Virus record (IMG/VR): IMGVR_UViG_3300047409_000468
Coordinates: 14,962-78,961 of that record
DNA from: a virus
Reading direction: 5' to 3' (one strand)
DNA: 64,000 nt
Shown piece by piece: positions 7,320 to 64,000 of this stretch (positions are counted from its first letter, which is position 1; the number at the start of each line of letters is the position of its first letter). The notes beneath the pieces were generated by a model. That model ran no database searches. It was given only the letters and a program-made list of their open reading frames with translations, and was not told the origin of the DNA. Both the position numbers and the translations under genes were made by a program.

Positions 7320-8242
7320 GTTTCAAATATCTCCAGTTCCAGGTTGACCGCCCAAGATTCCCCACCAAGGAAAACCGGCTGCGGCGGGCCGCCATTGGCC
7401 CGGAACCGTGCTATAGGATTCGCGGTATTTGGCGTAAGCATAAAGTCTGTTGCCGATTTAACTTTCTCCATTTGCGGCCCACCGATGCGAATACGCATGT
7501 CCATGAAAATGCCCGGCTTGGCCCACAACACCAGCCGAGGGATCAACCCGGTCAGTCCAGTAATCTGCGGAGTCCAGGTATTGGTATAGCGTTGCTGCGC
7601 CAATGCCAAGGTGGATAGCTGCGGCAGCACATCCACCATATGGCTCGTAGTCGATGGCACGTCATACTGTACCAGCCCGATATTCAACACGTTTGTCTTG
7701 GAGCCCGCCAGAAGCTGCATATAGAGCGACTGCGTCCACGTCTCCCCGGAAACCGCCGGGATGCTGCCACTAAAGCTGATTAGATTATAGGCCGCGCCCG
7801 TGCCGGTGCCGGCATAGTGCAGATCTACATACGGCAGGCCACTCACAGTGCCGTATTCCGCCACTTCGGCGATGATGCCGTTCTGTGTGCCGCCGCCAGA
7901 CCAGCCCGTGGGCAAGTGGCCGGGGCTGCCGGTCACCGCACCACCGGTTCCACTATTGGGCAGCCAATTGCGTCGCCAGCCGTAGCCGAACACCGGGTCC
8001 GGGAAATTGAACGGCAGCTTGCCGTCCAGTGTATCATCACGCCAGAACTGCCGCAGACGCACCAACTGGTCATGGTCCATCATCATAACGCCAGTGATGG
8101 GCCGGGGCATCGAACTGATGCGACTGCGGATCAATGCCGGGCCAAGGTCCGGTTGGGTTGCTATGCGGTTATCGCCAAAGGCGTCCGAATAACCATCCTT
8201 CTCGAACTGTTGGGGCAAACTGCTTGGCCATGCCTGCGGCAT
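7316..8242 (-). CDS. Distal tail protein with inserted carbohydrate-binding-like domain
   Basis: N-term WPSSLPQ...GPA..R...F...TL.G.LPF.FPDP and C-term ARF...P...W.V.LELE flank a ~180-aa insert (RNWLPNS...PQME). Confidence 0.7.
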   Translation of the reverse strand: MPQAWPSSLPQQFEKDGYSDAFGDNRIATQPDLGPALIRSRISSMPRPITGVMMMDHDQLVRLRQFWRDDTLDGKLPFNFPDPVFGYGWRRNWLPNSGTGGAVTGSPGHLPTGWSGGGTQNGIIAEVAEYGTVSGLPYVDLHYAGTGTGAAYNLISFSGSIPAVSGETWTQSLYMQLLAGSKTNVLNIGLVQYDVPSTTSHMVDVLPQLSTLALAQQRYTNTWTPQITGLTGLIPRLVLWAKPGIFMDMRIRIGGPQMEKVKSATDFMLTPNTANPIARFRANGGPPQPVFLGGESWAVNLELEIFET

Positions 8243-29667: not shown

Positions 29668-31101
29668 CTAATGGTGTCCTCCGCGCAGCGGTACGACGCC
29701 ACCGCGCGCCGACTTGCCAAATACTAAGTCTGTGATTGCCCACACCAGCGCATCGAGCCTGTCGGGGCTGCCTGCACCCTCGTAGCCGCGCACGGTCATG
29801 TAAATCATCTGCTCTTCCAGGCTGCCGAATGGCTGGCCATAGACGTGCCGCACGCGACCCTGCTCGTAGAGCGCAGCGATTGGCTCAGCCCGCACTGCCT
29901 TGCCCCGGCTGGCATGCACCGCGCGAAAGGCGACACGCCTGTTCACCGTGCGGATGGTGTGCTCCACCATGGCCCCGCCGAAGTTGGCCTCGCCCACTAT
30001 CATATCAGCACTGTTGTTCTCGTACGCTTCGACCACGCGCCGCGCCCAGTCGGCTGGTCCCCAGTTGACCGTAGCGTCCTCCAGCACGTAGACCGTGCCG
30101 TGATCGTCAATACCTGCCACCACGATGCCGATATCGTCCCCTACCTCGTCCTCATGGTCACCAGCGCGCTCTTTGCGCCGCATGTCGATTTCCCCGGTTG
30201 TACCGGACGGGTCCACGCCGACCACGACCCGCCGCATATCGGGCAAGTGGTCAGTCTTGTTCATGCCTGCGGCAAGCGGGTTCTGGCCCGATCGTTTCTC
30301 CAGCATCTTGCGCGTCCACAGCGCGCCCGGCACGTCGTCCAGCACCTCGGCGTGCAGTTCCTGTCTGCCCAGCCGAGTGCCTTCGTACTTCTCCTTCATC
30401 TTATCGATGAATTTGGACGACAGGTTGTCGGCGTTCTCGTACGTAGAACCCCGCGTCACTATCGTGTCGCCGCTCTTTTCGCCCCTCAGCAATTCGTGCA
30501 CCACCGGGATGGGCCGAGGCGTAGTCGTCACCAGTTGGCGCGGGTTATCACCCATGCGCAACCCGAACTGGAGCATGTCCCACGTATCTTGGGCATAACG
30601 CCACTTAGCCAGCTCATCGCTCCATGCTGCCTCGTGCTCCGGCCCGCGCAACTGCTCGGGGTCATCTGCCGAATAGGTATGAGCAACCGCGCCATTGGGC
30701 CACGTCAGCTTGCGCAGGGACGGCTTGTAGTCGGGCCTGTAGTCGGTTGGATGGCAGCGGAGGATGCCGCCTGCGCTCTGCACCATAACGTCTCTAGCGT
30801 CGGCCGCTGTCTCGGCTACGAGCGCCATGTGGCGCACCTTGCCCGCAGCGAAAGGGGTAGACCCGCACATCTGTGCTCGTACCCATTCGCTGCCCATGCG
30901 CGTCTTGCCGTATCCACGGCCTGCCATGGCGAGCCACACTGACCAGTTCCCCGAGGGCTCCTGCTGAGACGGCCGCCCCCAGAAGGACCAGTCGTACATC
31001 AACAATTCTGATTCCTGTGGCGTCAGGCCGAGAAAAAAGATTTCCCGTTCATGTGCCGGCAACCGAGCAAGCAATGATGCCAGCGCCACATTGGCATTCA
31101 A
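29668..31101 (-). CDS. terL: Terminase large subunit
   Basis: AGRGYGKTR Walker A, LRGP....AW.DE Walker B, VTTTPRP, VVGVDP and SPDRLDALVWA nuclease motifs. Confidence 0.95.
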   Translation of the reverse strand: MNANVALASLLARLPAHEREIFFLGLTPQESELLMYDWSFWGRPSQQEPSGNWSVWLAMAGRGYGKTRMGSEWVRAQMCGSTPFAAGKVRHMALVAETAADARDVMVQSAGGILRCHPTDYRPDYKPSLRKLTWPNGAVAHTYSADDPEQLRGPEHEAAWSDELAKWRYAQDTWDMLQFGLRMGDNPRQLVTTTPRPIPVVHELLRGEKSGDTIVTRGSTYENADNLSSKFIDKMKEKYEGTRLGRQELHAEVLDDVPGALWTRKMLEKRSGQNPLAAGMNKTDHLPDMRRVVVGVDPSGTTGEIDMRRKERAGDHEDEVGDDIGIVVAGIDDHGTVYVLEDATVNWGPADWARRVVEAYENNSADMIVGEANFGGAMVEHTIRTVNRRVAFRAVHASRGKAVRAEPIAALYEQGRVRHVYGQPFGSLEEQMIYMTVRGYEGAGSPDRLDALVWAITDLVFGKSARGGVVPLRGGHH

Positions 31102-31286
31102 GCGTATCCCTCCAAGTAGTCGCCCCCAGCGACAATGAAGAACGGACAGGGAACGTCAGCTGGGGGCGACACGGACTGCGGGTGTCCGTGGTTCGGCAAC
31201 GTAGCGCGTTGGACCCCGCACGTAAATGGGGTTTGCGTATGAAGAGACAGGAGGGTAAAAGACAGCACAACCCGGAGACAATACTG

Positions 31287-31487
31287 ATGAAACCATTCCC
31301 CACTACTTATCTCGGCGATGGCGTCTATGCCTCGTTCGATGGTTATCACGTGTTGCTGCACGTCGGCCGCCATGACACGTTGCCGTGCGTAGCGCTAGAA
31401 CCCGACGTAATTGCCGCGCTCAACCAATACTACGCCATGATAGTGAAAGAATTCGGCAATGCACCTGAACGAACTGATACTGTATAG
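31287..31487 (+). CDS. Small hypothetical phage protein (YLGDGVY.SFDG type)
   Basis: GGAG RBS, ATG at 31287; first of three coupled + strand ORFs. Confidence 0.65.
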   Translation: MKPFPTTYLGDGVYASFDGYHVLLHVGRHDTLPCVALEPDVIAALNQYYAMIVKEFGNAPERTDTV

Positions 31488-31761
31488 GATGCCGGACAGC
31501 ACTACCGGGGGAATACAACTGGTGGCTTGGGTACTGTCACTCAACGGCATAGCCATAGAGCAGGCCACCGAAGCGCACCCACTCACGGCTGTCAGCCCGG
31601 AGCCCGAGTTCCCCGCCGCGCTATGCGTGCTGGCCAGAAAGCTGGAACGCGCAACCGGCGCGCAGTGCAGCTACCGCGACAGGCGCGTCAGACCCGCCAC
31701 CACCATCAACATCGGCGGCATCGGCGTCAGGCTGGTCGCCCCAACACCGAGGACCATATGA
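31459..31761 (+). CDS. Hypothetical protein
   Basis: Overlapping/coupled ORF in a + strand insert. Confidence 0.45.
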   Translation: MHLNELILYRMPDSTTGGIQLVAWVLSLNGIAIEQATEAHPLTAVSPEPEFPAALCVLARKLERATGAQCSYRDRRVRPATTINIGGIGVRLVAPTPRTI

Positions 31762-31952
31762 AACGCCTTATCTTCGCAGCCGTCGTGCTGGTTACCATCC
31801 ACACCGCGCTGCTGGTCAGCCATCACGCCGCCAGCGCAGGTCTATCCGGCAACTATCGAGGTCCGGGCGCTCACGGCTATTCGCTACAAGCATCGCGCAC
31901 AGTTCACCAACTGTCTGCGGCCCCTCCCATCGTCGCTCCAGGCGGCCGATAA
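31758..31952 (+). CDS. Small putative exported protein
   Basis: GAGG RBS, ATGA coupling, signal-peptide-like MKRLIFAAVVLVTIHTALLV...ASA. Confidence 0.5.
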   Translation: MKRLIFAAVVLVTIHTALLVSHHAASAGLSGNYRGPGAHGYSLQASRTVHQLSAAPPIVAPGGR

Positions 31953-32035
31953 GCCGCCCGTGCGCTGAATACAGGGTCGCCGTGATGGTGTAGACCGCCG
32001 TAGCGGCAAAGACCTCTTGCGTAACTTCGTTCAGG

Positions 32036-32509
32036 TCAGTTCCCCGGCACCGCAGTGAATGGCTGCGCCGTCGGGATTGCTGCCGCCGGGGCCGCGTTCC
32101 CCGCCGCGCCGGTATTCTGCACGGTGATGCTGAGCCCGGCCACGGCAGTAATCTTGTACAAGCCGCCCGTGCCGATGGTCACGCTTTGCCCGATTATGAG
32201 CCCGGTAGCGTTGGTCACAGGGACCGCGACCGTAGCGTTCACCGCCGGCTGCGTGAACCCCGCCGTTGTCGTCGTAGGCGGCACCTGTGGCTTCACAATC
32301 TGTATATCATTGTCACACCACGTCAATGCCGCGCTCTGGGTGGAATGCCACTGAGCCTTGGCCTGACTGCCGTAGCGCTTGCAGTTGGCCCGCTCTGCGA
32401 TGTATTCAGCATTACCAATCTTACGTATTCGGTGCGCCCACTTGCCACCCTTGAAGTAAACCGGCGCAAAATTGTGAATAGGATAGTTGGTCGTCGTATA
32501 AACCGCCAT
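32036..32509 (-). CDS. Hypothetical protein with beta-rich C-terminal (virion-like) domain
   Basis: Follows terS; TTTAGFTQPAVNATVAV...G.Y.ITAV..LSITV. Confidence 0.6.
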   Translation of the reverse strand: MAVYTTTNYPIHNFAPVYFKGGKWAHRIRKIGNAEYIAERANCKRYGSQAKAQWHSTQSAALTWCDNDIQIVKPQVPPTTTTAGFTQPAVNATVAVPVTNATGLIIGQSVTIGTGGLYKITAVAGLSITVQNTGAAGNAAPAAAIPTAQPFTAVPGN

Positions 32510-32513
32510 GACC

Positions 32514-33026
32514 CTAGTCCTCTTCCTGTTTCTCGCGTGCCTTCATGCGTTCTGCTATTGCAGCGATCTTGCGCCGCAACTCAGCAGTGTGGTCCACTTT
32601 CGGGGATTCCTCTTCCGGGGGAGCCTGCCATATCGTCGCCCGTGGGCCATACCGCGCTGGGTCCGTCTTCTCGGTGTATATCTGCCCAGCCTTCATGCGG
32701 GTGTGCGCATCCCACGTTCCGCCCTTCCCATCCTCCAAAATACCGTCCACCAGCAACTCGGTTTGTATCTGCTTGGCCCGACGGTAGCGCAGATTAAAAT
32801 CCGGTTCCTGCTCCATCCACAGGAGGAATGTGCCGGGGAGCGGATAGTCACGATTATTGGCGGTCAGCGCGTTAAGCGTCTCACCGTTCATAATACGCTC
32901 AATTATGGCCTCAGCAATCGTCGGGTCAAACACCTTTGGCCGACGTCTGTAGTCCTCCTCTGCCCACCGGGGTTGATAGATAGTTGTTTGTGGCACCGGC
33001 CGGGGCATTTGCCCGTACACTTGCAC
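32514..33026 (-). CDS. terS: Terminase small subunit (Sf6-like)
   Basis: RP..F...IAE.I.ERI.NGE.L........P...TF..W......F...Y.RA......P..YG. Confidence 0.82.
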   Translation of the reverse strand: MQVYGQMPRPVPQTTIYQPRWAEEDYRRRPKVFDPTIAEAIIERIMNGETLNALTANNRDYPLPGTFLLWMEQEPDFNLRYRRAKQIQTELLVDGILEDGKGGTWDAHTRMKAGQIYTEKTDPARYGPRATIWQAPPEEESPKVDHTAELRRKIAAIAERMKAREKQEED

Positions 33027-33161
33027 CTATTCGCTGTCATTTGCAAGGCTCCAAAAATGGTCTAAAATGACGAAATTCCTTTAAGCTGCGCGGAATTTTT
33101 TGTACCAACACACTAATAGTATATTGGGCCACGACGATAGATGTGACCTACATATGTGTAT

Positions 33162-33245
33162 ACGGAGTTACAAAAGAGTACGGAAAAAAAGTGAGCCCGC
33201 GCGATGCCTTAAGCACTCTTGTAACTCCGTTACTCCTGTAACTCC
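33162..33245. repeat. GT(A/T)ACTCC repeats and 12-bp inverted repeat in the divergent intergenic region
   Basis: ACGGAGTTACAA (33162-33173) / TTGTAACTCCGT (33219-33230), then GTTACTCC and GTAACTCC. Confidence 0.7.
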
Positions 33246-33318
33246 AGCCTATTTTTTAAAACGTCATGTCGCCCCGCTCGCGCGCAACCCAAGTGTACCA
33301 ATCCACAATTACTATCGC

Positions 33319-33348
33319 TTTACGATATCCAGGGCGATGTGCTATAAG
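33319..33348 (+). promoter_or_regulatory. Early sigma70-type promoter
   Basis: TTTACG-N18-TATAAG upstream of the first + strand gene. Confidence 0.55.
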
Positions 33349-33385
33349 ATACCCCCGGCAACCCAAAACCACAGGAACCCCAATC

Positions 33386-33778
33386 ATGCCAACCGCATTC
33401 AAGCGCTACGCCCACATTGCCCGCACCAAGGGCCAACTCGATCTTGCCAACCGCCTCGAGATGGAAGCCCGCTGCGTGGGCTACCTGCTAGACGAATGTC
33501 TCCGCCGCCGCCTGCTCATCAGCGTGCACGACGGCGAGGAATGGTGCCTCACACGCTGCACCGACCGCGAAAAGATAATGGACGCGCTCGCCAGCACAGA
33601 CGAGGACGTACTGTTGATCCGCCACCCGGACGGTCCGGCCCACACCCCGCTCGGTCGCTTCTTCCTCGTGTACGGCAACACCGGCTGGGACGTGATCGCC
33701 GACCATAGCGACAACGAAACCTGCAACAGCATCTGGGACGCGATACTGCCCAAGCTCGACGCCGAGATGGCCCGATGA
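33386..33778 (+). CDS. Hypothetical early protein
   Basis: AGGA RBS; ISVHDGEE...STDED.L...G.F.LVYGN.G.DVI.D.S pattern. Confidence 0.75.
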   Translation: MPTAFKRYAHIARTKGQLDLANRLEMEARCVGYLLDECLRRRLLISVHDGEEWCLTRCTDREKIMDALASTDEDVLLIRHPDGPAHTPLGRFFLVYGNTGWDVIADHSDNETCNSIWDAILPKLDAEMAR

Positions 33779-37529: not shown

Positions 37530-39935
37530 ATGGCAACGAATCTTTACGCATTCCCGAACGGTAACCTCAGCGGGCTAGATGAAAACCCGCCGCTCGACAC
37601 GTTCCTCGCCGGCAAGACCGGCCCGGCGCTCATCCAGAACGCCAACCAGCAGGCGTTCGCCGGGCCGAACGGCACGCAGATCCGCTTCAACGGCGCTGGC
37701 TTCCAGTACGACCCTGCCGGCAACGGCATCGCCGGCACTCTGATCTCGGTGCAGATCGTCACGTTCGACGCTATCGGCAACCCGGTCACGCAGGAAATCA
37801 CCGTCGCGCCGTTCCCGGCGAACTCGTTCGCGCTGTTCTACGCGGCGTTGAACACCTCGCCGGCCGCCGCAGTGACGTTCCTGATGAACGGCAACGACAC
37901 CATCATCGGGTCGGCCACCAATGACCTGCTCGAGGGTCACAACGGAGCCGATAACATCAATGGTTTCGCTGGCAACGACCACATCATCGGCGGGCTCGGC
38001 ACCGACACCATCAATGGCGGGCTGGGCGTTGACGAATCGGACTACTCGGACAGCTACGGCCGCCCGGTCACCGAGGCCAACCATGGCATCATCGTCAGCG
38101 CCGCCACCAACACCGTGCTCAACTATGAGCCCGGCGTCCACGTCGAGACGGTCGTCAACGTCGAGAGCTACACCGGCACCCAGTTCACCGACACGTTCTT
38201 TGGCGACGGCGACAGCGAGACCTTCCGCGGCCTCGGTGGCAACGACATCATCAACGGCGGTACTGGCTCCGACACGGTCGCCTACGACCGCGACGCCAAG
38301 TTCGGCGGAACGGCCGGGGTGACGGTTAATCTCGCGACCGGCACGGCAACGGACGGCTTCGGTCAGACCGACACGCTGACCAGCATCGAGAACGCCATCG
38401 GCACGGCGGCCAACGACACCCTCATCGGCAACGGCGCGAGCAATGAACTGCGCGGCGGGGCTGGCGATGATTCGTTGACGGCGGGGACCGGCGGCTTCGA
38501 CCACATGTTCGGTGGCGACGGCAACGACACCTATCACGTCAGCAGCTTCTTCACGCAGATCGCTGACGAGATCGGGACCGGTGGCATCGACACCGTTGAA
38601 TCCGGTGACATTTCGATCGACCTGACCGACACGTTCCGCTATCGTGGCGACATCGAGAACATCACGCTTACCGGCGCGGCACCGCTGTTCGCCCGTGGTA
38701 ACGACCTTGACAACGTGATCGAAGGCAACCTTGCTGCCAACGTCCTAACCGGCAACGGCGGCGATGACACCATCAACGGCAATGGCGGCAACGACACGCT
38801 GAACGGCGACGGTGGCAACGACAAGCTGGACGGCGGGCTCGGCGACGACACGGTGAACGGCGGGCTCGGCAACGACCAACTGGTCGGCGGTGCCGGGGAC
38901 GACACGTTGCGCGGCGGCGAGGGCAACGACACCCTTGACGGCGGCATTGGCGGCAACCACCTCGACGGCGGGCTGGGCAACGACACCTATGTGCTCGGGG
39001 CCAAGGCCGACGGCGAGGACAGCATTGCCGACGCTGGTGGCAACGATACTGTCACCAGTTCTATCGACCGCAGTCTGGCGTTCTACACCGGGTTGATTGA
39101 GAACCTGACCCTTACCGGCGGCGCGCATGTCGGCACCGGCAACGGCGGCGACAACATCATCACCGGCAACGACCTCGGTGACACGCTGCTCGGGCTCGGC
39201 GGCAACGACACGCTGATCGGTGGGCTCGGCAACGACACCCTGCGTGGCGGTGACGGCGACGACACCCTGAACGCTGGTGCCGGCGACGACGTGCTCGACG
39301 GCGGCAATGGCAACGACAGCATGAACGGCGGACTGGGCAACGACACCTATCTGGTGCTCGGTGACGACGACATCATCGACACCGGTGGCGTCGACACGGC
39401 CCGCTCGGCAGGCTCGCTCAACCTGCTGAACTATACCGGCGTGGAGAACGGCGTGTTGACGGGTGGCGGCAACGCTTCCCTGATCGGTACGAACGGAGCC
39501 AACGTGTTGACCGGCAACAACGGCAACAACGTGATCTCCGGGCTGGCCGGTTCCGACCGCATCGATGGCGGCTTCGGCAACGACCACATCAACGGCGGTG
39601 CCGGGCATGACGTGCTGCGTGGCGGTGGCGGCGAGGACTTCTTCCGCTTCGCCAACGGTGGCAGCGCCAACAGCGACGTCATCACCGACTTCAGTCATAC
39701 CGCCGACACCATCGAACTGAGCCGCCGGGTGTTCTCGGCCCTTGGCCCGACGGTTACCGCCAACGAGCTCAGGCTCGGCACCCATGCGCTGGACGGCAAC
39801 GACCACCTGATCTACGACCGGGCGCACGGTCTGCTGTCGTATGACTCGAACGGCAACCACGCTGGCGGCTCGTTCGTAATCGCGACGCTGACCAACCATC
39901 CGGTGTTGACGGCCAACGACTTCGTCATGGTCTAA
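37530..39935 (+). CDS. RTX / hemolysin-type Ca-binding repeat protein, probable type I secretion substrate
   Basis: 801 aa, many GGxGxDxLx nonapeptides, no Sec signal, serralysin-like C-terminus (DVITDF...DTIEL...LIYD...G.L.YD.NG...LTANDF). Confidence 0.92.
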
Positions 39936-46206: not shown

Positions 46207-48195
46207 CTATTCCCAATTCTGTTTCGCTTCGCCCCATGTAGGGCCGACCTCAAAATCGACGATGGTCGGCACCACCAGCGGCGTTGTTTCAACCATTATC
46301 TGTTGCGCCCGCAGCGCCAGCGCTTTGTCGGCGGTACTCAAATCTATCTCGTCGTGCATCTGCACCAGTGGCACTATACCCTCACGCCAGCATGCCAGCA
46401 TAGCCCGCTTGGTTTGTCGCGCCGCGCTGCCCTGCACCAGATTATTCAGGCTCTTGCGGGTGTCCGCCCGGCGCAGCCTGGACCGGGACCACGGGTGCTC
46501 CGGGTTCTTGGCGCGCTCCTGTGCCTCCTCGTAAGTGCACGGCGTCAGCCGCATGCCCTTGGCCTCTGCCGCCAGCCGATCTTCCCACTCGACATAGCCA
46601 CCTTCCCATTGGGGATAGTGCATGCGCGCGCCATCGATGAGCCGGATATAACCCCGCAGGTTCGCGGCGATCTTGCACTTGTCTTCCAGGGATTTAATGA
46701 ACGGCAACCGATTGTGGTAGTCTTGCAGTAGCACCTCGGCCTCGTTCAAACTCAGCCCGAGCTCATCGGCCAGCGACCGCTTGCCCTTGCCGTACGTCAT
46801 GGCCAGATTAAGGATCTTGGCCACCGGACGCGGCTGCCCGGTCATCTCCGCAACCATGCTGTGGTAATCGGTGCGCGGGTCGTCGATATAGCGCTGCACG
46901 GCGGCCTCAGCGCCGGCTGCCCCTACCCTGGACGCGAAGTGCACGGTCAACCGGGGCTCTTGTTGGCTGTAGTCAAGCGCCACCCAGCGCTCGCCCTGCT
47001 CGGGTAGAAACGCCTTGCGTATCTGCTTCCCAATCTTGTTCTTATCCGGGCTTGGCATCTGTTGCAGCGGCGGCTCGCTGTAGCTCAGGCGATGACTGCG
47101 TGTTCCCCCGGCATCGCTGCGGTATTGGTGTATCTCGGCATGGATCCTGCCATCGATTTCATAGCCGAGCAGGAAATTTTCCAGGAACTTGGTCCGCGCC
47201 TCTTCGTATATTTCAGCTACGGCACAGGCTCGCGGCAATGGGTGATTGTGCTTCTCCATCCAATCTTTAGTGAAGCTGCCCTGCTTGGCCTTGACGGTCC
47301 GGGGGAACACGATGTGTTCTCTGGTGAACCATTGCTCCATCTGGCCGGGCGAACGTATCTCCTTCATGGATGCCGGACGACGCAGTTCCAGGAGCTCACC
47401 CACCTGTGCCAATGCTGCGTCGCGTACCGCACTATATTCGTCTATCAGCTTGTGGACATAGGGCACATCAATGCGTATGCCGCGCCGCCGCATGGCGATA
47501 ACCATGGGCACCAGCCCCATCTCGGTTGTGTAGGCTGGCATTAATTCCTGCTCGTGCAGCTTGGGCGCTGTGTGCTGCCAGAGCGCCAGCGTCGCCGCTG
47601 TGTCGGCCTCGGCATAGGGGCCGGCATACTTGGCCGGCAACTGCCATATGCTCTCCCTTGCCTTCCTACGGTCGGCCCCCATGGCCTCTACCGCTTCTTC
47701 TAGCAGCGCAATGTCTTTGCCCGGCAGCCCGGCCCGCTTGCAGCAACTATCCAGGTCGTAGGCATACTCGTTCTCGTCCACCAACACGCACGCCGCCAAC
47801 GTATCATTGATGTTGGCTCCGGTCATGCCGGCAAGCATGCACTCCATCCAGCCACAGTCATAGGGGGCATTGTGGAAGACAAGCGGCGTGCCCGACTTGG
47901 CAAGATCCGTGAGCCAGCGCATGACCTGCGTATTGGTGAATACGGTAGCGGTATCGGGATGCTGGATTGGCGCGTATCCCACGCTATCTTCAGCGGCCCA
48001 GCTTACTCCGCAGATAAAGCCAGCATCAAAGGCCCAGCCGGGACCGCGCTTTTCTATGAGCCCAACGTCCTTGGTCTCGCAGTCAAGCGCCACCACCGGC
48101 CGACCCCGCAAATCAGGGAGTTCGGCCGGCGGCTGCCAGTTGCTTTCCGGCACGAACAGCCCAAGCTGTCCGAGGCGGTATTTGTATTTAGTCAC
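46207..48195 (-). CDS. polA: DNA polymerase, family A
   Basis: Exonuclease DCET/HNAPYD/YA..D; polymerase motifs DYSQQEPR, R..AK..NL...YG.G, QGSAA, QMHDE. Confidence 0.95.
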   Translation of the reverse strand: MTKYKYRLGQLGLFVPESNWQPPAELPDLRGRPVVALDCETKDVGLIEKRGPGWAFDAGFICGVSWAAEDSVGYAPIQHPDTATVFTNTQVMRWLTDLAKSGTPLVFHNAPYDCGWMECMLAGMTGANINDTLAACVLVDENEYAYDLDSCCKRAGLPGKDIALLEEAVEAMGADRRKARESIWQLPAKYAGPYAEADTAATLALWQHTAPKLHEQELMPAYTTEMGLVPMVIAMRRRGIRIDVPYVHKLIDEYSAVRDAALAQVGELLELRRPASMKEIRSPGQMEQWFTREHIVFPRTVKAKQGSFTKDWMEKHNHPLPRACAVAEIYEEARTKFLENFLLGYEIDGRIHAEIHQYRSDAGGTRSHRLSYSEPPLQQMPSPDKNKIGKQIRKAFLPEQGERWVALDYSQQEPRLTVHFASRVGAAGAEAAVQRYIDDPRTDYHSMVAEMTGQPRPVAKILNLAMTYGKGKRSLADELGLSLNEAEVLLQDYHNRLPFIKSLEDKCKIAANLRGYIRLIDGARMHYPQWEGGYVEWEDRLAAEAKGMRLTPCTYEEAQERAKNPEHPWSRSRLRRADTRKSLNNLVQGSAARQTKRAMLACWREGIVPLVQMHDEIDLSTADKALALRAQQIMVETTPLVVPTIVDFEVGPTWGEAKQNWE

Positions 48196-48770
48196 TTTGT
48201 GCGGTATTCGTCCTCGATTTCCTTGCGCAGTTCCTCAGCGGCCTGCTCCAGCGCATCCTCGGCGCTGGCGTGCTGCCCACCGTCCTCGGGCGTGCCCGGT
48301 ACGTTGGCGCTGGGCCGCCAAGGGCGACCCGTGGGGAGTTTTTTGGCGGGGGCCGCCACCTTGGGTCGGGCAGCCTCCTGCGCCTCCCCACGGGCCTGCG
48401 TTGCCCGCGCGTGCATAATTTCCTGCACCCGTGCCTTGGCGTCTTCGCGCGGCATGTTCCAGGCAACGGCCAAGGCCGCGTAGACATCGGTGCCGTCGTA
48501 GGCAATCACTGGGTCACGCAGCCGATTGGCAACGCACTTGGCATAACCGGCGATGTCATCCCAATGGTCGGGCTCGTTAGGGTCACCGCAGCTTATGCGC
48601 GCCATCTTATGCGCAATCATGTAAAGCGCGTGCCGCTGCTGATCTGACAGGGTCGGCCAGTTGCGCTCGTGCTGCATGGCGCGCAGCATCTCCCACGTTG
48701 CCCGACTGTTTTCAGCAAATTCGCCGTGTATCGAGGGTCGATCACTCAGTATCTTGTTTATCTGGTCCAT
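48192..48770 (-). CDS. DUF6378-like nucleotide-metabolism-associated protein
   Basis: IL..R...HG.F...AL.MI..K.ARI..GDP...DHW.DIAGYA. Confidence 0.75.
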   Translation of the reverse strand: MDQINKILSDRPSIHGEFAENSRATWEMLRAMQHERNWPTLSDQQRHALYMIAHKMARISCGDPNEPDHWDDIAGYAKCVANRLRDPVIAYDGTDVYAALAVAWNMPREDAKARVQEIMHARATQARGEAQEAARPKVAAPAKKLPTGRPWRPSANVPGTPEDGGQHASAEDALEQAAEELRKEIEDEYRTK

Positions 48771-49309
48771 CAGTTGTTCCTTTGGTTCATAACGGCGGTA
48801 TGCCGCTCGCGCTGTTTGTCTAGCCAGAGGATAATCTTTTCACGATCGCCTCCAGACTCCAGTGTATTCGTCAATTTTAGTGCTGCCCGCATTGTACGCT
48901 GTATGATTGGTATGGCCAACTGATTGCCCATCTCATATTCCATCATGCCAAAGCATGCCATCTCGAGCAGGTCGCAAATCTTTATCTTGGTGCGAATCAC
49001 CGGGGCCAGTCCCGGCAGCGTAACGCCCATGGTTTCCAGCGCACTGTCCTCGACCGCGTTAAACGCGGCCTTGAGCTCTGGGTTATTGGCCTTGGTCGGG
49101 AACGGTATGTCACCCACCACCAATTCAGCCACATCGTGCAAGCGGATGTAGCGCTCAACCGGGGAACTGAGCTCGCCGAATATCTGCTCATATATGAGCG
49201 CAACCTGCCAGCTATGCTCGCCGACGGTCTGCACCTGGATCGTAGGCCACGCATGATAACGCCTGATGCGCCCCGCGTGCCGTACGGTATCCGTTACAAA
49301 GTCACTCAT
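48770..49309 (-). CDS. HD-domain (YfbR-like) nucleotidase
   Basis: RYH......QTV.EHS...LHD.AE...GD.P.P.K...K.CD.LE. Confidence 0.88.
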   Translation of the reverse strand: MSDFVTDTVRHAGRIRRYHAWPTIQVQTVGEHSWQVALIYEQIFGELSSPVERYIRLHDVAELVVGDIPFPTKANNPELKAAFNAVEDSALETMGVTLPGLAPVIRTKIKICDLLEMACFGMMEYEMGNQLAIPIIQRTMRAALKLTNTLESGGDREKIILWLDKQRERHTAVMNQRNN

Positions 49310-49991: not shown

Positions 49992-50972
49992 TTATTTCAT
50001 CCTTCGCTTTAACCACGCCGTGGTCGCTGTCCGCCAGTCCAATGCTACAATCTTGTCGGCCCATTGCAAGGCTATTTCGTAGTCGCCCAGCTTGCGTGCC
50101 CGGTTCGCTTCCCACATGGGGCGTGCCGTAGTGTCGAGGAATGTGTTGCTTGCGCCCTTAACCGAGTCAGGGTCGTCGACGTAGGCGGCCACCTCATCAT
50201 CAAAAGTATCCGCATCATCGACCAACGGAGTTATTGTGGGATAGCTCGGCCACCCGTTGGCGCTATCGTGATTGGCCAGATGCCGGGCGTTTTCATACAT
50301 GTGCCAGTTCCAGCTGAATTGGGTCATCGTGCCAATGACGACTTCCAGCCGCGCCGCCAGATATTCCTGGAGAATACTGAAGTGCACCGCGTTGGCCCCG
50401 TAGCAGCCCCACACGATATCGTTGGACCGGCAGGTCACCCCGAGGTCCAGCCGCCCCTCATGTATCCGTAGATAAACCTGTGTGTTGCAGGGGCGATCCT
50501 TCAGGCCCGGCACGCCAAGGTCAACCTCAGCATCCCACATCTGTATAACCGCCTGCCTGCTACTGGCATCCGTATTAAGGATTGAAACCACATTATCCAA
50601 TTGGTCCAGGTCTTCTCGTATCGCACGTATATCCAGAAAGTGGCTGCGCCACCTGTAGCCATAGGCACCGTGCATCGTGCCGTCCTTCTCAGCAAAGCGT
50701 GCTGAGAAGTCAGCTACAAACTGGTCCAGCCACGTAGCGTCATTGCGCCCGGCCAGCATCCACAACGCCTCGTGCAGATGGAATATCGGGTTGGCGTCCC
50801 GCACCGGATCGAACAGCACCCGCTCCATCGGGCGTTCATACACGGTGACCACCGGCCACGGCGCAACCACCACCGGGCCGTTGCGGCTGGGTTCAGGCAT
50901 ACCACACTGCTCAATCAGGCCAATGGCATGCTGCCACGCATCGTTAACGTTGCGCGCATAGATGGTTCTCAT
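49992..50972 (-). CDS. Thymidylate-synthase-like dUMP hydroxymethylase
   Basis: SRNG, RDANP.F...E.LWML.GRND, GAYG.RWR, SRQAV, PCN, RSND.VWG..GAN (Asn indicates dUMP specificity), H.Y. Confidence 0.88.
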   Translation of the reverse strand: MRTIYARNVNDAWQHAIGLIEQCGMPEPSRNGPVVVAPWPVVTVYERPMERVLFDPVRDANPIFHLHEALWMLAGRNDATWLDQFVADFSARFAEKDGTMHGAYGYRWRSHFLDIRAIREDLDQLDNVVSILNTDASSRQAVIQMWDAEVDLGVPGLKDRPCNTQVYLRIHEGRLDLGVTCRSNDIVWGCYGANAVHFSILQEYLAARLEVVIGTMTQFSWNWHMYENARHLANHDSANGWPSYPTITPLVDDADTFDDEVAAYVDDPDSVKGASNTFLDTTARPMWEANRARKLGDYEIALQWADKIVALDWRTATTAWLKRRMK

Positions 50973-51148
50973 TTTCTATTAACCTTGTCCAACATCCGCA
51001 GCAACCGGGGGCTGACGTGGCCACCGGGACTCCTTATATCGCGCCGGAGTTGCGTAAGCTGCATCTCCAGTTGCTTGATGTACCGGTCCTTGGCCGCATT
51101 GGCGTCGGTCAATTCCTTGAGCCGTTTATTCCATTCTTTTTCTATCAT
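50969..51148 (-). CDS. Small coiled-coil hypothetical protein (59 aa)
   Basis: Own translation MIEKEWNKRLKELTD...; ATGA-coupled at both ends. Confidence 0.6.
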   Translation of the reverse strand: MIEKEWNKRLKELTDANAAKDRYIKQLEMQLTQLRRDIRSPGGHVSPRLLRMLDKVNRK

Positions 51149-51708
51149 AATCCCAGCAACTCCATGACACGCGGCAGCGCCGTAGCACGGCTATGCGTCT
51201 CCACTTTTATACCACGCCTGCGGTTTGTCTTGTTAGTTGTGAATATCTGCTTGTACTTGACGCGCGTGGCGGTCTCGTCCACTGGCTCCATCTCACCGCG
51301 CGCCATGCGCCGCTGATTGACACTGGCGATGCAATCCACCAGTAGCGTATCCAGGTGGATAACCGTAAGCGATGTCGCCTTGCCGATACGCACAAGGCGC
51401 TCGACACCAAGCGTAACCAGCCCTTCCATAAGGACTGATCGTCCCTGCGCTATCTGTTCCAATACGCACTTTTCTACTTCGTCAGCAAAGCCGGCCCAGC
51501 GCATCGTATCGATGCCGCCGCATTGCGCCCCATACTTGCCCACCAGCAAGACCGGGGGAGACTGCCAGACGTAGCCGCCAACTTTGCGATTGTTAGGCCC
51601 CATGCGGATAATCTCCGCCTGTGGCAGCCCGCCAAGGCGCGCTATGACCTTCTCGGCAATAGTGGTCTTACCGCTACCGCTAGTCCCCCGGATAAGCACG
51701 ACGCTCAT
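51145..51708 (-). CDS. 5-hydroxymethyluridine DNA kinase (5-HMUDK-like P-loop kinase)
   Basis: IRGTSGSGKTT, VG.Y...CGG.D, VL.EG, LDT....CI..V..RR.ARG as in M6/ViI-type kinases; adjacent to the TS homologue. Confidence 0.82.
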   Translation of the reverse strand: MSVVLIRGTSGSGKTTIAEKVIARLGGLPQAEIIRMGPNNRKVGGYVWQSPPVLLVGKYGAQCGGIDTMRWAGFADEVEKCVLEQIAQGRSVLMEGLVTLGVERLVRIGKATSLTVIHLDTLLVDCIASVNQRRMARGEMEPVDETATRVKYKQIFTTNKTNRRRGIKVETHSRATALPRVMELLGL

Positions 51709-52142
51709 GGTCCCTCCGTCAGGTAACGGGCAAAGTGTTCATTCACCAGCGCACCGCGCCGCACGGCCCGCACACGTGCATATGCATCTGCCCCGGTTAT
51801 ACCCTCTAGCTGCATAAGCACCAAGGCACAGAACAGCCCTGACCGATTGCGCCCGCCCCAGCAATGCGCCAGCAGCACCCCGCCGCCCCTGATGAACGCC
51901 ACGGCATCGGTGACCAAGGTTTCCAGCAGCATCGCCATTCTGGGGTTCATCTGCCCATCCGGCAACGACACTTGCTCATACCAATCCATGAGCCCAATGA
52001 TGCGGTTATCCGGCGAGTGCCACAGGTTGACTATGCCCGAGATCTTATACCGAGTAATCATATTAACAATGGCCGTGCCATCCAGCTGATGCGTGCGGGC
52101 CGATAGATACAGCTTGCCGGGCAGGATCTCATAAACCCGCAT
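51705..52142 (-). CDS. Dual-specificity / PTP-family phosphatase
   Basis: L.DG WPD-loop equivalent and HCWGGRNRS (CX5R). Confidence 0.9.
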   Translation of the reverse strand: MRVYEILPGKLYLSARTHQLDGTAIVNMITRYKISGIVNLWHSPDNRIIGLMDWYEQVSLPDGQMNPRMAMLLETLVTDAVAFIRGGGVLLAHCWGGRNRSGLFCALVLMQLEGITGADAYARVRAVRRGALVNEHFARYLTEGP

Positions 52143-52377
52143 TCATTTTCTCCGTGAACCGAACGATGGCGCGTTGCACCGCAGATTCAACCAACCCAAC
52201 AGATGCTGCCGGACTACAGTTGAAGACCTTGACATTGACCATCATTACTGCTAACAGAATAGTTTCGACGACAACCATGAATTGGGCGAAACCCCCACCC
52301 ACGCCGATTACTTCCTTTACGACATGGGTCGTAAATTCTGTCGCTATGCGGTTATGGACGTCATCATGGTTGCTCAT
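52129..52377 (-). CDS. Small helical hypothetical protein
   Basis: ATGA-coupled to the transferase. Confidence 0.55.
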   Translation of the reverse strand: MSNHDDVHNRIATEFTTHVVKEVIGVGGGFAQFMVVVETILLAVMMVNVKVFNCSPAASVGLVESAVQRAIVRFTEKMNAGL

Positions 52378-53387
52378 GCCTGCCACCGTACCGGGTTGGC
52401 CATATCTTCAGTTTTATTGAAGTCGTAAAGCAGGTCGGTCCACGTATAGCCATGCTTGCGCAGGCATACGGCCACCGGCTTGCGTGGCCCATCCCAGCCA
52501 TTGAGCTCACCTAGATGCTTGTGCGGGAACAGCACCTCGCGCGCGCGCCAGATGTCGGAAACATGGCCCCACTCACGTTCGGCTTGGCGCGCATATTTCA
52601 GTTCCGAATCTATGGATCGCCCCGGATACTGCTTCATGCTCTCCCATGATTCACGGTATTCACAGAGCATGACCTGCAACTGAAACATATCGATGTCCAC
52701 ATCGTAATGCTCCTTCAGCATTGCGATGGCATCCTGACAGCTTTGATGTGCCAGCGCCAGCGCCCCTATGCTGTTGTCCCGATTACCCAACCCTCGGTCG
52801 GGGAATAAATAGCCCAGCGTGTGCCGGGGGGACCATGCGTCTTTCGGCCGTATATCGGGCGTGGCGATGTGCAGGTCCAGGTGTCGCCGCATGTACTCCA
52901 GCAGCTTGATAGCCGAGTAGCGCCCGATGCGCGGCAGCCGCAGCACCCATTCCCACGCCAGTTCGTAAGCGGCTGTGGGCTCGTCCACGGCGCACTCTGC
53001 CTTTAGTTTGGGCCAATCGTGCCACACGAACTTGTGCGCCGCGTTCAGGTATTCCGCCATCCAGTCAGCTCGGCGCATCATCTTGCGCTCGTTGCGGCAA
53101 GTTATCTTGGTCGGTGGTTCAAAGGCCTCGTCCAGCCAGTGTCGCAGCGCACCGGTATTCTCGGCCTGTGTGTACGACCAATGCCGCCACAGCACTTCGG
53201 CATATGGCACATTGTAGACCGCGATGTAGCACAGCGCCCGCCAGACCCGCTCGTTCTCGTCGATTATCGGCAGGTTCGCCATCTCCGCGACCATGGTCAG
53301 TTGCGGGTCCGGTCCTCCGGAAGCCAGTTCCCATCTACAAAACTCGGCGAAGAACTTGCGGTGCTCGTTAGTTGTGAAATCCAGCAA
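52374..53387 (-). CDS. aGPT-Pplase2 / amino acid:DNA transferase-like HhH protein
   Basis: DP..., ER.W, ER+..R, L..IGRYS..K.LEY, LCEY......YPG..ID, E..GW.G.R pattern of phage hypermodification transferases. Confidence 0.78.
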   Translation of the reverse strand: MLDFTTNEHRKFFAEFCRWELASGGPDPQLTMVAEMANLPIIDENERVWRALCYIAVYNVPYAEVLWRHWSYTQAENTGALRHWLDEAFEPPTKITCRNERKMMRRADWMAEYLNAAHKFVWHDWPKLKAECAVDEPTAAYELAWEWVLRLPRIGRYSAIKLLEYMRRHLDLHIATPDIRPKDAWSPRHTLGYLFPDRGLGNRDNSIGALALAHQSCQDAIAMLKEHYDVDIDMFQLQVMLCEYRESWESMKQYPGRSIDSELKYARQAEREWGHVSDIWRAREVLFPHKHLGELNGWDGPRKPVAVCLRKHGYTWTDLLYDFNKTEDMANPVRWQA

Positions 53388-54285
53388 ACCAATCTAGCTC
53401 CAATCCAAAGCGTTTACCCTGTTGTTCAGTGCACCGGTTGCATGGCGTCTGTGCACCACGATCTCGCCTTATCAAGTTTTCCCGCACCTCGTCATAGGCG
53501 TCCCATAGATCAGGTAGTGATTGGTCAGGGAACTTGCCTACGATATGCTCGTCGCCCCAGTCGTCGCAACATATAGGGATGCTGCCGTCAAACCACATAG
53601 GAAATTCGCGAAATGGCCTAACGCACATGCGCGCCAGCGGCTCCTTGATTGGTCGCACGTTGGGATACATCCGGGCGGCAGGCCCCGGCCCCACATCTGC
53701 ATTTCCGCCTTGATTGTGGTAATGCAGAATGATGTTCTCCTTGGGTGCCCGACCATCCTCGGTCTTATAGGTGCAGGCATCCTTGATAATCAACGCACGC
53801 CAGTCCGGCCCACGATACGGATATGGATTGGCCGAATCATCAAAGAACGTGTTGGCGGTGCCCGCGAACAGCGCCGTGAACTCGCGCAATCGTCGTGGCG
53901 TATAGCAATCCAACAGGAAGCAGTTCACCCCGGCATCTTGCGCCTCCTGGACCCACGCTTTGAATCTCGCGAGCCCTATGATATCGGACAGATCACCGTT
54001 AGTGCTGACGAGGAACTGCGCCTTGGGCAATGCCTGCCGGGCGATGTGGATATATTCGATGAATCGCGGGTGCAGCGTGGGCTCGCCCCGGTTGGCAATC
54101 TCAATGCGTACCTTGGGCCGCCATGCGGCAACGGCTTCAACGTAGCGTCCCCACAGGTTTGCCGGCAGGTACTCATATTCCTTTTCGGCCCAGTCTTGGT
54201 TGCGCAAGCCGCAGAACACGCAGCGCAGCGTGCAGCCACGTACGAACTCAGGTTTCAGGCTGTATGGCAGATGTCGCGGCATCAT
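53368..54285 (-). CDS. Radical SAM enzyme with SPASM/twitch domain
   Basis: CTLRCVFC (CxxxCxxC), [16 protein letters not shown]......DG....CC.DW...PC.RC; RBS AAGGAG before ATG 54285. Confidence 0.88.
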
Positions 54286-55351
54286 GCACTCCTTGAATCC
54301 ATTTGCGCAGCGTATCACGAGCCTCGTCGTCATTGCACTGCTCGGGTGGCGACTTCATGTAGTAGGAGCTCGCCGCTTGCACCGGCCCGCCTTCACCACG
54401 GTCCTGCGCCAATGCTGCGCACCGTATGGCGTCTATGACAACGCCTGCGCTGTTGGGGCTGTCCCACACCTCCAGCTTTAGCTCTATTGACATTGGTGCG
54501 CCGCCAAAGCCTTCGCCTTCCAGGCGGATGTGCGCCCACTTGCGGTCGGTCAGCCACGGCACATGGTCACTCGGTCCTATATGCACGTCCCCAGCGGGGA
54601 TAGGTGTACCCATCACCGAGGTGACTGCACGGGTCTTGCTTATCTTCTTGGTCTTCAGCCGCTCACGCTCGAGCATGTTCAGGAAATCGGTATTACCGCC
54701 AACGTTCAGTTGGCTCGTGTGCAACAGCTTGACACCACGGTCCCGCAGCAACGTCACCAAGGCCCGGTGCACGATGGTCGCGCCTACCTGTGACTTGACG
54801 TCGTCACCAATGATTGGCACCCCGGCGTCATAAAATGACATGGCCCAGTCCGGGTCCGATGCAATGAATGTGGGCATGCAGTTGACAAAGGCGCAGCCAG
54901 CGTGCAGCGCCGCCTTGGCGTAGTGTCGTGCAGCCTCCTCCGCACCGACCGGCAGATAATTCACCACCACGTCGGCACGCATGTGCTTGAGCTCGGTGAC
55001 CACGTCTACCGGGGGAGCAATACTTTCGATGAGTACCTCCTTCAGGTATTTGCCCAATCCGTCCAGCGTCGGTCCACGCTGCACAGTGGCATCTGTGTGG
55101 CGTAATACATTGGTGAATTGCAGCGTGCAGTTGGGCTCGGCAAATATTGCATCACGCAAATACTCGCCCACCTTGTTCTCGGCAATGTCAAAGGCCCCGA
55201 CCACCTGGATGTCTGCCGGCGTGTAGCCGCCCAGTATCGGGTTCATCAAGCCGGGCGTATCGCTATTGCGACCCGCGTAATAAGTCAGGCCCTGCACAAG
55301 AGAAGAGGCGCAGTTGCCCACGCCTACGATTGCCACTCGTATCTGTCGCAT
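54248..55351 (-). CDS. ino1: myo-inositol-1-phosphate synthase
   Basis: [44 protein letters not shown]...RL..KK.SKT, IGPSD.VPWL.DRK, V.DSPNSAG...DA.R, KSPP. Confidence 0.95.
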
Positions 55352-63017: not shown

Positions 63018-63425
63018 TCAACCGCGACAATTGCAAACTGCGTCGGCATCACAGCCACAGCCGGGATAGTCGCACGAGACAAGCGGGTTTACAGCCACGT
63101 CGAGCGCGAGAGCCGACATGAGTTGCAGCACAGAATGTGCGCCCAACTTGTCGCCGGCCTCCCAGCCACTCTTGAGGTACAGCGCACGAGCACGCCCTTC
63201 TGCTTCGTCTCGTGTCAGGTTGTCTATCTTCGCTGCTGGCGTCACCGCCCCTTGGGGACGACGATTCCAGGCTGCGACGGCTTCGGTTTCGGTTGCGTCC
63301 CATACGCGAGCAGTACAGTCGCGACAGCGAGCCGCAGCGCGCAAAAAGCCACGGTCCATGTAAGTCCATGATTCTGCCTTCCCGCCGCAAAACGGGCAGG
63401 GCTTGAGTTCGGTCTGCTCTGGCAT
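63018..63425 (-). CDS. Lar-family (restriction alleviation) zinc-ribbon protein
   Basis: ELKPCPFCGG.A...C..C.......EAV.AWNRR; GGAG RBS before ATG 63425. Confidence 0.75.
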   Translation of the reverse strand: MPEQTELKPCPFCGGKAESWTYMDRGFLRAAARCRDCTARVWDATETEAVAAWNRRPQGAVTPAAKIDNLTRDEAEGRARALYLKSGWEAGDKLGAHSVLQLMSALALDVAVNPLVSCDYPGCGCDADAVCNCRG

Positions 63426-63438
63426 GGTCAGTCTCCGT

Positions 63439-64000
63439 TCACGGCCGGCCTCTTTCGAGCCGGGCGATGTGCCTGAACAACTGCTTGGGCCTGCCCTCGC
63501 CCAGCCGCGTGCGCTCGTACTTATCGAACTCGCAAAGTATGTTCTGGGTGTCCTGCGCATCCGGGGGAGCCCAGCCTTCCCGTAGGAAAGGTGCCTTCAG
63601 CCGCTCCTGTAGCTCATTTACGCGCAGCCTGAACTCGTCCTCGCGCCATGCCTGCTTGAGGGGTCGCTCCAGCACGCGGTTCATCCCACGGCGGCTGCCC
63701 GGCCCGCTGGCGCAGAAGGTGTGCCAGTCGCTGGCTTGGCGCAGCGGCGCGACGTGCTTCACGTCGGCGATAACCTGCGCCGACAGGAAGCTGCCCAGCC
63801 CGTGCCACAGCCCCAGTTGCATGTGCCACGCGGTCAACGTGTCCCCCGGCTGCGGCCTGATGCGGTCCCGCGCCGCCCACATGGGGTCAAACACATAGTC
63901 GACGAGGTAAGCCGATTTGCTCGGGTACTTCGTGCCGTTGGTGCTGATCAGGTAAGCCCCACTAAACACCTTGGCACGGGCCTTGCGCCGGGCTTCTGTA
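63439..64000 (-). CDS. aGPT-Pplase1 family HhH protein (5' end outside window)
   Basis: F.GAY.I, G.G.F...QV.AD, GPGS.RG.NR, D.QN.LCEFDKY.R...G.G.PK. Confidence 0.85.
   Translation of the reverse strand, partial: TEARRKARAKVFSGAYLISTNGTKYPSKSAYLVDYVFDPMWAARDRIRPQPGDTLTAWHMQLGLWHGLGSFLSAQVIADVKHVAPLRQASDWHTFCASGPGSRRGMNRVLERPLKQAWREDEFRLRVNELQERLKAPFLREGWAPPDAQDTQNILCEFDKYERTRLGEGRPKQLFRHIARLERGRP

Follow-up and report, generated by a model that had tools for sequence, protein, structure and literature searches.

What base does a phage make when a gene for myo-inositol-3-phosphate synthase (ino1) opens an operon that otherwise resembles those used by phages M6 and PaMx11 for the hypermodification of thymidine? 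The question is raised by positions 49992-55351 of the stretch of viral DNA analysed here (hereafter the window), which has 64,000 nucleotides (nt) and covers bases 14962-78961 of the 78,961-bp IMG/VR virus record IMGVR_UViG_3300047409_000468 (completeness rating 100%). The answer to which the evidence leads is that the phage DNA may carry an inositol-derived thymidine, a prediction from genes alone that we hold to be somewhat better than an even bet. The gene pairings that carry this reading recur in many other viral loci, and it is these, together with the residues kept and changed in the transferase, that we weigh below against other possible donors.

Gene content and predicted pathway

The locus forms a single compact gene run on the minus strand, in which the junctions overlap by 4 to 38 nt. 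All six enzymes named in the original prediction (Ino1, radical SAM enzyme, transferase, phosphatase, kinase and a thymidylate synthase (TS)-like enzyme) are encoded there on that strand, and the translational coupling that it described corresponds to a real, compact and overlapping arrangement. Its two small open reading frames (ORFs), of 85 and 59 amino acids (aa), do not stand as members of the module: neither matches any family, neither has a homologue among the relatives, and they are not conserved. Furthermore, in L191, the closest relative, the genes for the transferase (ADDT) and the phosphatase abut directly, with no room for the 85-aa ORF. The run consists of the following features:

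54248-55351, minus strand: ino1, myo-inositol-3-phosphate synthase, 367 aa (TIGR03450 and PF01658 matches, alignment to 1GR0)
53368-54285, minus strand: twitch-type radical SAM enzyme, BtrN-like, 305 aa (Radical_SAM and SPASM matches, BtrN fold)
52374-53387, minus strand: ADDT / aGPT-Pplase2 homologue of a distinct clade, 337 aa (sub-threshold PF18724 match, hhalign)
52129-52386, minus strand: 85-aa ORF, doubtful gene (without family match or homologue)
51705-52142, minus strand: CX5R dual-specificity-type phosphatase (DSP), 145 aa (DSPc, 33.8 bits)
51145-51708, minus strand: P-loop kinase, predicted 5-hydroxymethyl-deoxyuridine (5-hmdU) DNA kinase, 187 aa (homology to PaMx11 gp49)
50969-51148, minus strand: 59-aa ORF, doubtful gene (without family match or homologue)
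49992-50972, minus strand: TS homologue, predicted dUMP hydroxymethylase, 326 aa (phrog_5131, homology to M6, YuA and PaMx11)

The pathway that we propose is a post-replicative thymidine hypermodification of the M6/PaMx11 type, in which a cyclitol would be added to DNA in place of an amino acid. Judging by homology, the TS-like enzyme would make 5-hydroxymethyl-dUMP, which would then be incorporated into DNA; the P-loop kinase, together with a helical partner, would phosphorylate 5-hmdU in the DNA; and the conserved cysteine of the ADDT would expel the phosphate and offer the exocyclic methylene to a nucleophile. The later steps are suggested by gene context. That is, Ino1 would convert glucose-6-phosphate to myo-inositol-3-phosphate, a ring hydroxyl of this cyclitol would act as the nucleophile, the CX5R phosphatase would strip the cyclitol phosphate, most likely after transfer and in a logic similar to that of Ino1, MshA and MshA2, and the BtrN-like radical SAM enzyme, as an optional add-on, would oxidise or epimerise one ring carbon. 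We predict as the product a 5-(inosityl-O-methyl)-dU that this phage would further oxidise or epimerise; both its O-ether linkage and its final structure are purely conjectural. The modified base would likely serve to shield the DNA against host nucleases.

The thymidine-activation backbone

The window kinase is 35.5% identical, across 98% of its length, to PaMx11 gp49, which is listed as a 5-hmdU DNA kinase (Table 1, PMC8989533); its match to PF18748 is weak (E 1e-3). The helical partner of the kinase (HMUDK_hel, PF18723) is encoded outside the operon, with matches at genome positions 55-426 (E 2e-23) and 78460-78948 (E 2e-15) that belong to one intact 288-aa ORF (window 63439-64000 plus genome 1-432) once a 127-bp end repeat is collapsed. 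Because the gene runs across this 'direct terminal repeat', the repeat looks like an assembly overlap and not like physical ends, and the record like a circular or permuted genome. Along its entire length, the TS homologue shares 41% identity with its counterparts in M6, YuA and PaMx11 (gp51), and it matches phrog_5131 (E 3e-91). A genome-wide search found neither a DegT-type aminotransferase nor a TET/JBP gene, and since the latter is missing, the TS homologue is the sole candidate source of 5-hmdU; we infer that it is a dUMP hydroxymethylase rather than a methylase.

In PaMx11 the order of genes is gp46 (ADDT), tailoring genes, gp49 (kinase), gp51 (TS), gp52 (HD-domain protein) and gp55 (polymerase), and the same order is found in the window. 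This shared order, along with the homologous kinase, TS-like gene and ADDT, bears out the 5-hmdU kinase/transferase backbone that had been proposed and supports the view that the operon is, in its backbone, a predicted thymidine-hypermodification operon of the M6/PaMx11 type.

A distinct clade of ADDT transferases

The window ADDT scores 24.6 bits against PF18724, for which the cut-off is 26.2 bits, while relatives of the same clade reach 33-36 bits. Searched directly against the PDB, the sequence of the window ADDT gave no match. When a profile of 24 clade relatives was compared by hhalign with a profile of canonical ADDTs (PaMx11 gp46, Cr30, Tonitrus and others), the two aligned with a probability of 99.6% (E 1.5e-24), and the clade profile also reached one solved ADDT in the PDB (25qc, E 0.009). 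The clade is large, with 246 clusters at 50% identity at E<=1e-30.

We compared the residues named in the paper describing the gp46 structure, in which Cys247 is catalytic, Trp146 holds the glycine and Glu243 is a metal ligand (PMC11472151). The counterparts of gp46 Cys247, Tyr47, Tyr51, Glu92 and Asp24 are retained in the window ADDT clade, and that of Cys247, which is Cys242 in the window ADDT, is invariant. Trp146, on the other hand, is replaced by a tyrosine (Tyr157 in the window ADDT) that is itself invariant in the clade, and Glu243 by a glutamine in the window, at a position that varies across the clade. Since the catalytic cysteine and the phosphate-pocket residues are kept and the nucleophile-pocket residues are changed, the chemistry performed on the base should be the same as in gp46, with a different pocket for the nucleophile. 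By these profile and residue comparisons, then, the window transferase is a real ADDT, albeit one of a distinct clade.

Ino1 and its pairing with the transferase

The window Ino1 matches TIGR03450 with an E-value of 7e-148 and 492 bits, under the equivalog cut-off of 638, and PF01658 with an E-value of 2e-36. Its residues 3-353 align to residues 15-366 of Mycobacterium tuberculosis Ino1 (1GR0) at about 65% identity (E 4e-136), with identical NAD-binding and catalytic motif blocks; the runner-up in the PDB, the five-membered-cyclitol-phosphate synthase 6K96, is a much weaker match (E 8e-62). On this alignment the protein is a full-length myo-inositol-phosphate synthase (MIPS), predicted to convert glucose-6-phosphate to inositol-3-phosphate.

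The gene directly adjoins an ADDT of the window-type clade in about 24 IMG/VR loci (L005-L009, L014-L025, L031-L035 and L038). Several of these loci are distant from the window, their ADDTs being 29-39% identical to that of the window and their PolA proteins, where matched, 22-32%. In a tree built together with bacterial Ino1 proteins, the ADDT-linked ino1 copies are scattered, and at least four changes are required by its well-supported branches. An approximately unbiased (AU) test, chosen after the first tree had been seen, rejected a single clade of ADDT-linked ino1 copies (p 0.0036, log-likelihood difference 120). Because these copies do not form one clade, the ino1-ADDT pair must have been assembled repeatedly, and because such repeated, independent assembly is hard to explain otherwise than by Ino1 feeding the transferase, a functional tie between the two is supported. 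The number of captures may be slightly inflated, since one 3.9-kb contig binned as Anaerolineales (L170), with an Ino1 closest to that of the phage locus L033, may be phage DNA in a bacterial bin. A recent capture of the window's own ino1 from a host was considered and rejected: the closest bacterial Ino1 proteins, the nearest of which include those of Hyphomicrobiales, are merely 57-64% identical to it, and the window copy falls within an all-phage clade of 14.

A separate clade of ino1 lies beside canonical ADDTs in the cultured Caulobacter phage Cr30 and in contigs L052, L073 and L078. In Cr30 the order is ADDT (PF18724 E 1e-52, 179 bits), a TAGT-like gene and ino1, and the three contigs additionally carry TET/JBP, HMUDK_hel, kinase or FkbM genes. 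Cr30 and the related T4-like contigs are thus like the window in that ino1 stands at most two genes from an ADDT inside a DNA-modification block, but differ from it in having an ADDT of the canonical clade, an ino1 of another clade and a TAGT-like gene, and in that no CX5R phosphatase was seen in them; in some members TET/JBP would be the source of hydroxymethyluracil, versus the TS homologue in the window. A neighbourhood search for ino1 beside aGPT-Pplase2 transferases, by which the original prediction wished to be judged, had a mixed outcome: the pairing does recur, with repeated origins, in about 24 viral loci, yet there are complete sister genomes without ino1.

Between ino1 and the ADDT there is a slot whose content varies from locus to locus. 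A radical SAM gene is found in the window, in L191 (82% identical enzyme) and in L021/L200; L025 has a GFO/IDH/MocA oxidoreductase and an SDR protein, L034 an FkbM methyltransferase, L022 a HAD hydrolase and L020 a homing endonuclease alone. GFO/IDH/MocA is the family of inositol 2-dehydrogenase. Overall, the genes occupying this slot point to cyclitol chemistry. There is perhaps an even chance that phages hold a whole family of cyclitol-bearing thymidines, in which an ADDT-phosphatase pair would couple inositol phosphate to 5-hmdU and interchangeable tailoring cassettes would diversify the ring. Here the cassette would be a twitch radical SAM enzyme, with the window providing the oxidised or epimerised member, a base that has no described counterpart; elsewhere its place would be taken by NAD-dependent dehydrogenase/reductase pairs, O-methyltransferases or glycosyltransferases.

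Two further contexts of ino1 were observed. In L038 a gene of the Mom family (7326-7976; PF25680 E 2e-29), which is concerned with adenine hypermodification, lies immediately upstream of ino1, ADDT and DSP, so that one phage may modify two bases. In Moby-like phages (L002, Stenotrophomonas phage Moby, MN095772.1, record positions 28187-33601), ino1 belongs to a cluster for the 7-deazaguanine modification of DNA that reads FolE, ino1, a hypothetical gene, QueC, a DpdA/TGT-like gene and QueE; a cyclitol may also be used there with deazaguanine bases.

The phosphatase as partner of the transferase

In the HCxGGRNRS motif of the phosphatase, Cys94 and Arg100 are invariant across 22 relatives, and the general-acid aspartate of the PDG loop is present in the window, having been lost in one subclade. 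The predicted structure (pLDDT 95.7) has a generic atypical-DUSP fold, matching DUSP19, 14, 28 and 23 at a TM score of about 0.8, and a weak match to PTP-like phytase, obtained with a fused protein of L033 (E 0.004), is the sole hint at an inositol-phosphate substrate. The enzyme accompanies the ADDT clade in all 27 of the 27 viral loci, nearly always immediately downstream. Fusions of ADDT and phosphatase occur in 14 of the 150 best cluster representatives (P0043, P0045 and P0050 are among the fusion proteins); such a fusion is encoded at 8923-10800 of L033, and in L031 (10898-11962) the phosphatase is fused to a P-loop kinase. A phosphatase of this kind is missing from the two cultured ADDT systems that were inspected, PaMx11 and Tonitrus.

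A role as inositol-phosphate phosphatase had been suggested for this enzyme on account of its CX5R family. The enzyme is indeed there, but its distribution (27 of 27 loci, and the fusions) tracks the transferase and not ino1, which makes the dephosphorylation of free inositol phosphate only one option. Most likely the phosphatase would be a sequential partner of the transferase and remove the phosphate from inositol phosphate after its attachment; it is possible instead that it acts before transfer, or that it clears unreacted 5-phosphomethyl-dU.

The radical SAM enzyme

The radical SAM gene starts with the ATG at 54285, which is preceded at a distance of 5 nt by AAGGAG, and its protein therefore has 305 aa, not 321. 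BtrN is its sole sequence match in the PDB (E 5.5e-4). The radical SAM motif CX3CX2C is formed by C18, C22 and C25 (305-aa numbering), of which C22 and C25 do not vary among 36 homologues; C221, C239/C240, C282 and C285, which would hold the auxiliary cluster, are invariant as well and align with the BtrN ligands. The best match of the AlphaFold model (pLDDT 86.5) is again BtrN (4M7T; E 1.9e-12, TM 0.80), followed by SpeY. BtrN of the butirosin pathway and SpeY of the spectinomycin pathway are cyclitol or aminocyclitol dehydrogenases. The phage enzyme is like both in its CX3CX2C motif and in a twitch domain with a single auxiliary cluster, with the cysteines aligned; it differs from them in overall sequence (about 15-17% identity to BtrN/SpeY) and in that it also occurs with TET/JBP and a glycosyltransferase where there is neither ADDT nor ino1.

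The assignment to BtrN-like twitch enzymes thus holds in sequence and in fold, but a dependence on ino1 does not, as there are genomes that keep the radical SAM gene without ino1. In the complete genome L103 (IMGVR_UViG_3300012930_000001, 72 kb), a 42%-identical radical SAM enzyme is encoded directly after TET/JBP, with a TET-associated glycosyltransferase (TAGT) 3 kb away (6002-7885 and 11154-11885). This is a different hypermodification system with the same radical SAM family. From this context the enzyme would not be specific to inositol, and it is better described as a putative tailoring enzyme for polyols on DNA. Separately, in L099, where radical SAM, ADDT, DSP and kinase genes form a cluster that lacks ino1, the kinase gene is followed by one for a 454-aa, weakly radical-SAM-like protein (phrog_13321; 10140-11504), and a Dam-type methyltransferase gene precedes the radical SAM gene.

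Comparison with characterised systems

In PaMx11 the base 5-AcNmdU is made by a cluster encoding the ADDT/PUGT gp46, the FAD lyase gp47, the acetyltransferase gp48 and the 5-hmdU DNA kinase gp49 (PMC8989533). Compared with PaMx11 and with M6, which makes 5-NedU, the window has no flavin lyase, acetyltransferase, pyridoxal phosphate (PLP) decarboxylase or spore-photoproduct-lyase (SPL)-type radical SAM enzyme, and has instead Ino1, a twitch radical SAM enzyme, a CX5R phosphatase and a separate clade of ADDT. Family scans of the operon and its flanks detected no PLP, flavin, acetyltransferase or SPL-type radical SAM family, in agreement with the original prediction, which had noted that a PLP decarboxylase and a flavin lyase were absent from the cluster.

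Salmonella phage ViI, with its base 5-NeOmdU (PMC6449724) and the serine:DNA transferase gp247 (PMC8989533), is a precedent for a hydroxyl oxygen attacking the activated 5-hmdU to give an ether-linked base. The donor in ViI is an amino acid that is then decarboxylated by a PLP enzyme, whereas the window has a candidate cyclitol donor and no PLP enzyme.

A second likeness, by analogy only, is with mycothiol biosynthesis. There, Ino1, MshA and the phosphatase MshA2 act in turn, so that inositol phosphate is the acceptor for the transferase and the phosphate is removed afterwards. In both cases the product of MIPS would be an acceptor that is dephosphorylated later, and the phage Ino1 matches the mycothiol-type model TIGR03450. 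The difference is that the window transferase is predicted to act on a DNA base and is not a glycosyltransferase, and that the window phosphatase is of the CX5R kind.

Which donor does the transferase use?

A number of observations weigh against an inositol-derived base. One is the complete 82-kb sister genome L096 (PolA 72% identical), in which the genes for the radical SAM enzyme, ADDT, phosphatase, kinase and TS homologue are all present but ino1 is nowhere to be found; several other contigs also have the radical SAM-ADDT-DSP combination without ino1, and L013 carries the ADDT and the phosphatase alone. The radical SAM gene in turn is found in L103 without ADDT or ino1. As to the enzymes themselves, the window ADDT falls slightly below the Pfam cut-off, the generic DSP fold found by the fold search gives no substrate, the joint presence of a HAD phosphatase and a DSP in L022 blurs the role of the latter, and the hydroxymethylase role of the TS-like enzyme is taken from homology only. 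The proposed base, finally, is a prediction from genes.

The genomes with radical SAM, ADDT and DSP genes and no ino1 show that Ino1 is optional. Either the ino1-less branches obtain a cyclitol from their host, or this ADDT clade takes another nucleophile. Inositol phosphate is produced by many soil bacteria themselves, among them the Hyphomicrobiales whose Ino1 proteins come closest to that of the phage, and supply of the cyclitol by the host is a reasonable candidate explanation for the ino1-less relatives.

If the second possibility were true, the ADDT-phosphatase pair would attach some other phosphorylated alcohol or amine available in every host (sugar phosphate, glycerol phosphate or phosphoserine), the phosphatase would trim it, and Ino1 would only diversify or feed the pool, so that the base would not be, or not exclusively, inositol-derived. 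This would fit with ADDT-DSP being the constant core (L013 and complete genomes have it but lack ino1) and with the frequent ADDT-DSP fusions. We nevertheless consider it unlikely, given that ino1 overlaps or immediately adjoins the transferase gene and has repeatedly been captured there, that tailoring enzymes of an inositol type accompany ino1, and that ino1 is also paired with a different ADDT clade that has no DSP.

Alternatively, the transferase could install an amino acid as in M6, PaMx11 and ViI, and Ino1 would be the product of a hitch-hiking auxiliary gene serving host lipids or thiols; unreacted 5-phosphomethyl-dU would be cleared by the phosphatase, and a DNA adduct or 5-hmdU itself would be the substrate of the radical SAM enzyme. 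An amino acid or a polyamine is the donor of every characterised ADDT (PMC8989533), M6 provides the precedent of a radical SAM enzyme (an isomerase) working on a DNA adduct, and the window-type radical SAM gene is also found beside TET/JBP without an ADDT. The M6 isomerase, however, is of the spore-photoproduct-lyase type (Lee et al. 2021) and not twitch/BtrN-like, no PLP, flavin or acetyltransferase tailoring gene was found, the nucleophile-pocket residues of the window ADDT differ from those of gp46, and chance hitch-hiking leaves the repeated, independent adjacency of ino1 and ADDT unexplained, all of which renders an amino acid donor improbable here.

Still a little more doubtful is that the cyclitol is used otherwise than as a simple inosityl ether, that is, as a phosphodiester on the 5-methylene or after being glycosylated or built upon further: the phosphate of the Ino1 product could itself act as a nucleophile, and TAGT-like glycosyltransferases and methyltransferases adjoin ino1 in related clusters, but a phosphatase that is conserved and frequently fused is more in keeping with loss of the phosphate than with its retention, and there is no glycosyltransferase in the window operon.

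Novelty and implications

The original prediction had stated that no base of this inositol-derived kind was described. Literature searches on inositol and phage DNA hypermodification agree with this, as they found no description of an inositol-bearing DNA base, nor does inositol come up in the main text of Lee et al. (2021). Three points are new here: the pair of ino1 and ADDT is combined with a radical SAM enzyme of the BtrN-like kind, the CX5R phosphatase is obligate and often fused, and there is evidence for repeated capture of ino1. The characterised thymidine hypermodifications that start from 5-hmdU all derive from amino acids or polyamines. A cyclitol donor, if true, would place a chemically new class among the natural DNA bases, one that is neutral, bulky, polyhydroxylated and sugar-like and is joined by an ether; it would also be a new class of substrate for ADDTs, and the twitch radical SAM enzyme would be the first of its kind with a job in DNA modification. 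It could help to explain why ino1 is frequent in phage contigs (the viral-contig collection alone yields 210 matches), and it would be of relevance to restriction evasion, to artefacts in virome sequencing and to enzymatic tools for 5-hmU labelling. Since Cr30 is cultured, it offers an experimental handle.

Source record and neighbouring genes

The nearest relatives of the terminase are in Brevundimonas phages (48% identity) and roseobacter phages (45%), and those of the DNA polymerase in HTVC023P-type phages (35%). A near-identity DNA search of the phage collection gave no match and hence no cultured close relative. A search of sequencing runs recovered the same DNA as contigs from soil metagenomes (three runs); raw long reads, in which modified bases could show up, were not among the finds.

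Downstream of the run are genes for a Zn-ribbon protein, an HD-domain 5'-deoxynucleotidase, a DUF6378 protein and a family A polymerase, and upstream are those for UvrD and SSB. The features outside the run that bear on the operon are these:

48770-49309, minus strand: HD-domain, YfbR-like 5'-deoxynucleotidase (PF12917 E 1e-11; syntenic with PaMx11 gp52; kept in relatives)
46207-48195, minus strand: family A DNA polymerase, end of the syntenic block (PF00476 E 1e-37; about 72% identity in sister contigs)
63439-64000, minus strand: C-terminal part of the HMUDK_hel gene (PF18723), which crosses the record junction

Two ORFs that flank the run (125 and 129 aa) have no homologues among the relatives; the possibility that the 125-aa ORF is the DUF7352 gene of L096 was rejected on comparison. 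PHROG searches with the uncharacterised neighbouring proteins returned nothing useful, and a scan for promoters and terminators gave a site count that was not above that of shuffled sequence.

A protein with a Lar-like restriction-alleviation domain (PF14354 E 6e-9; window 63018-63560, minus strand) is encoded next to the HMUDK_hel gene and would serve as a second anti-restriction device. Lastly, an 801-aa protein encoded at window positions 37530-39935 on the plus strand is for the most part composed of RTX calcium-binding nonapeptide repeats (PF00353 E 4e-53), which are unusual in a phage and hint at a Gram-negative host.

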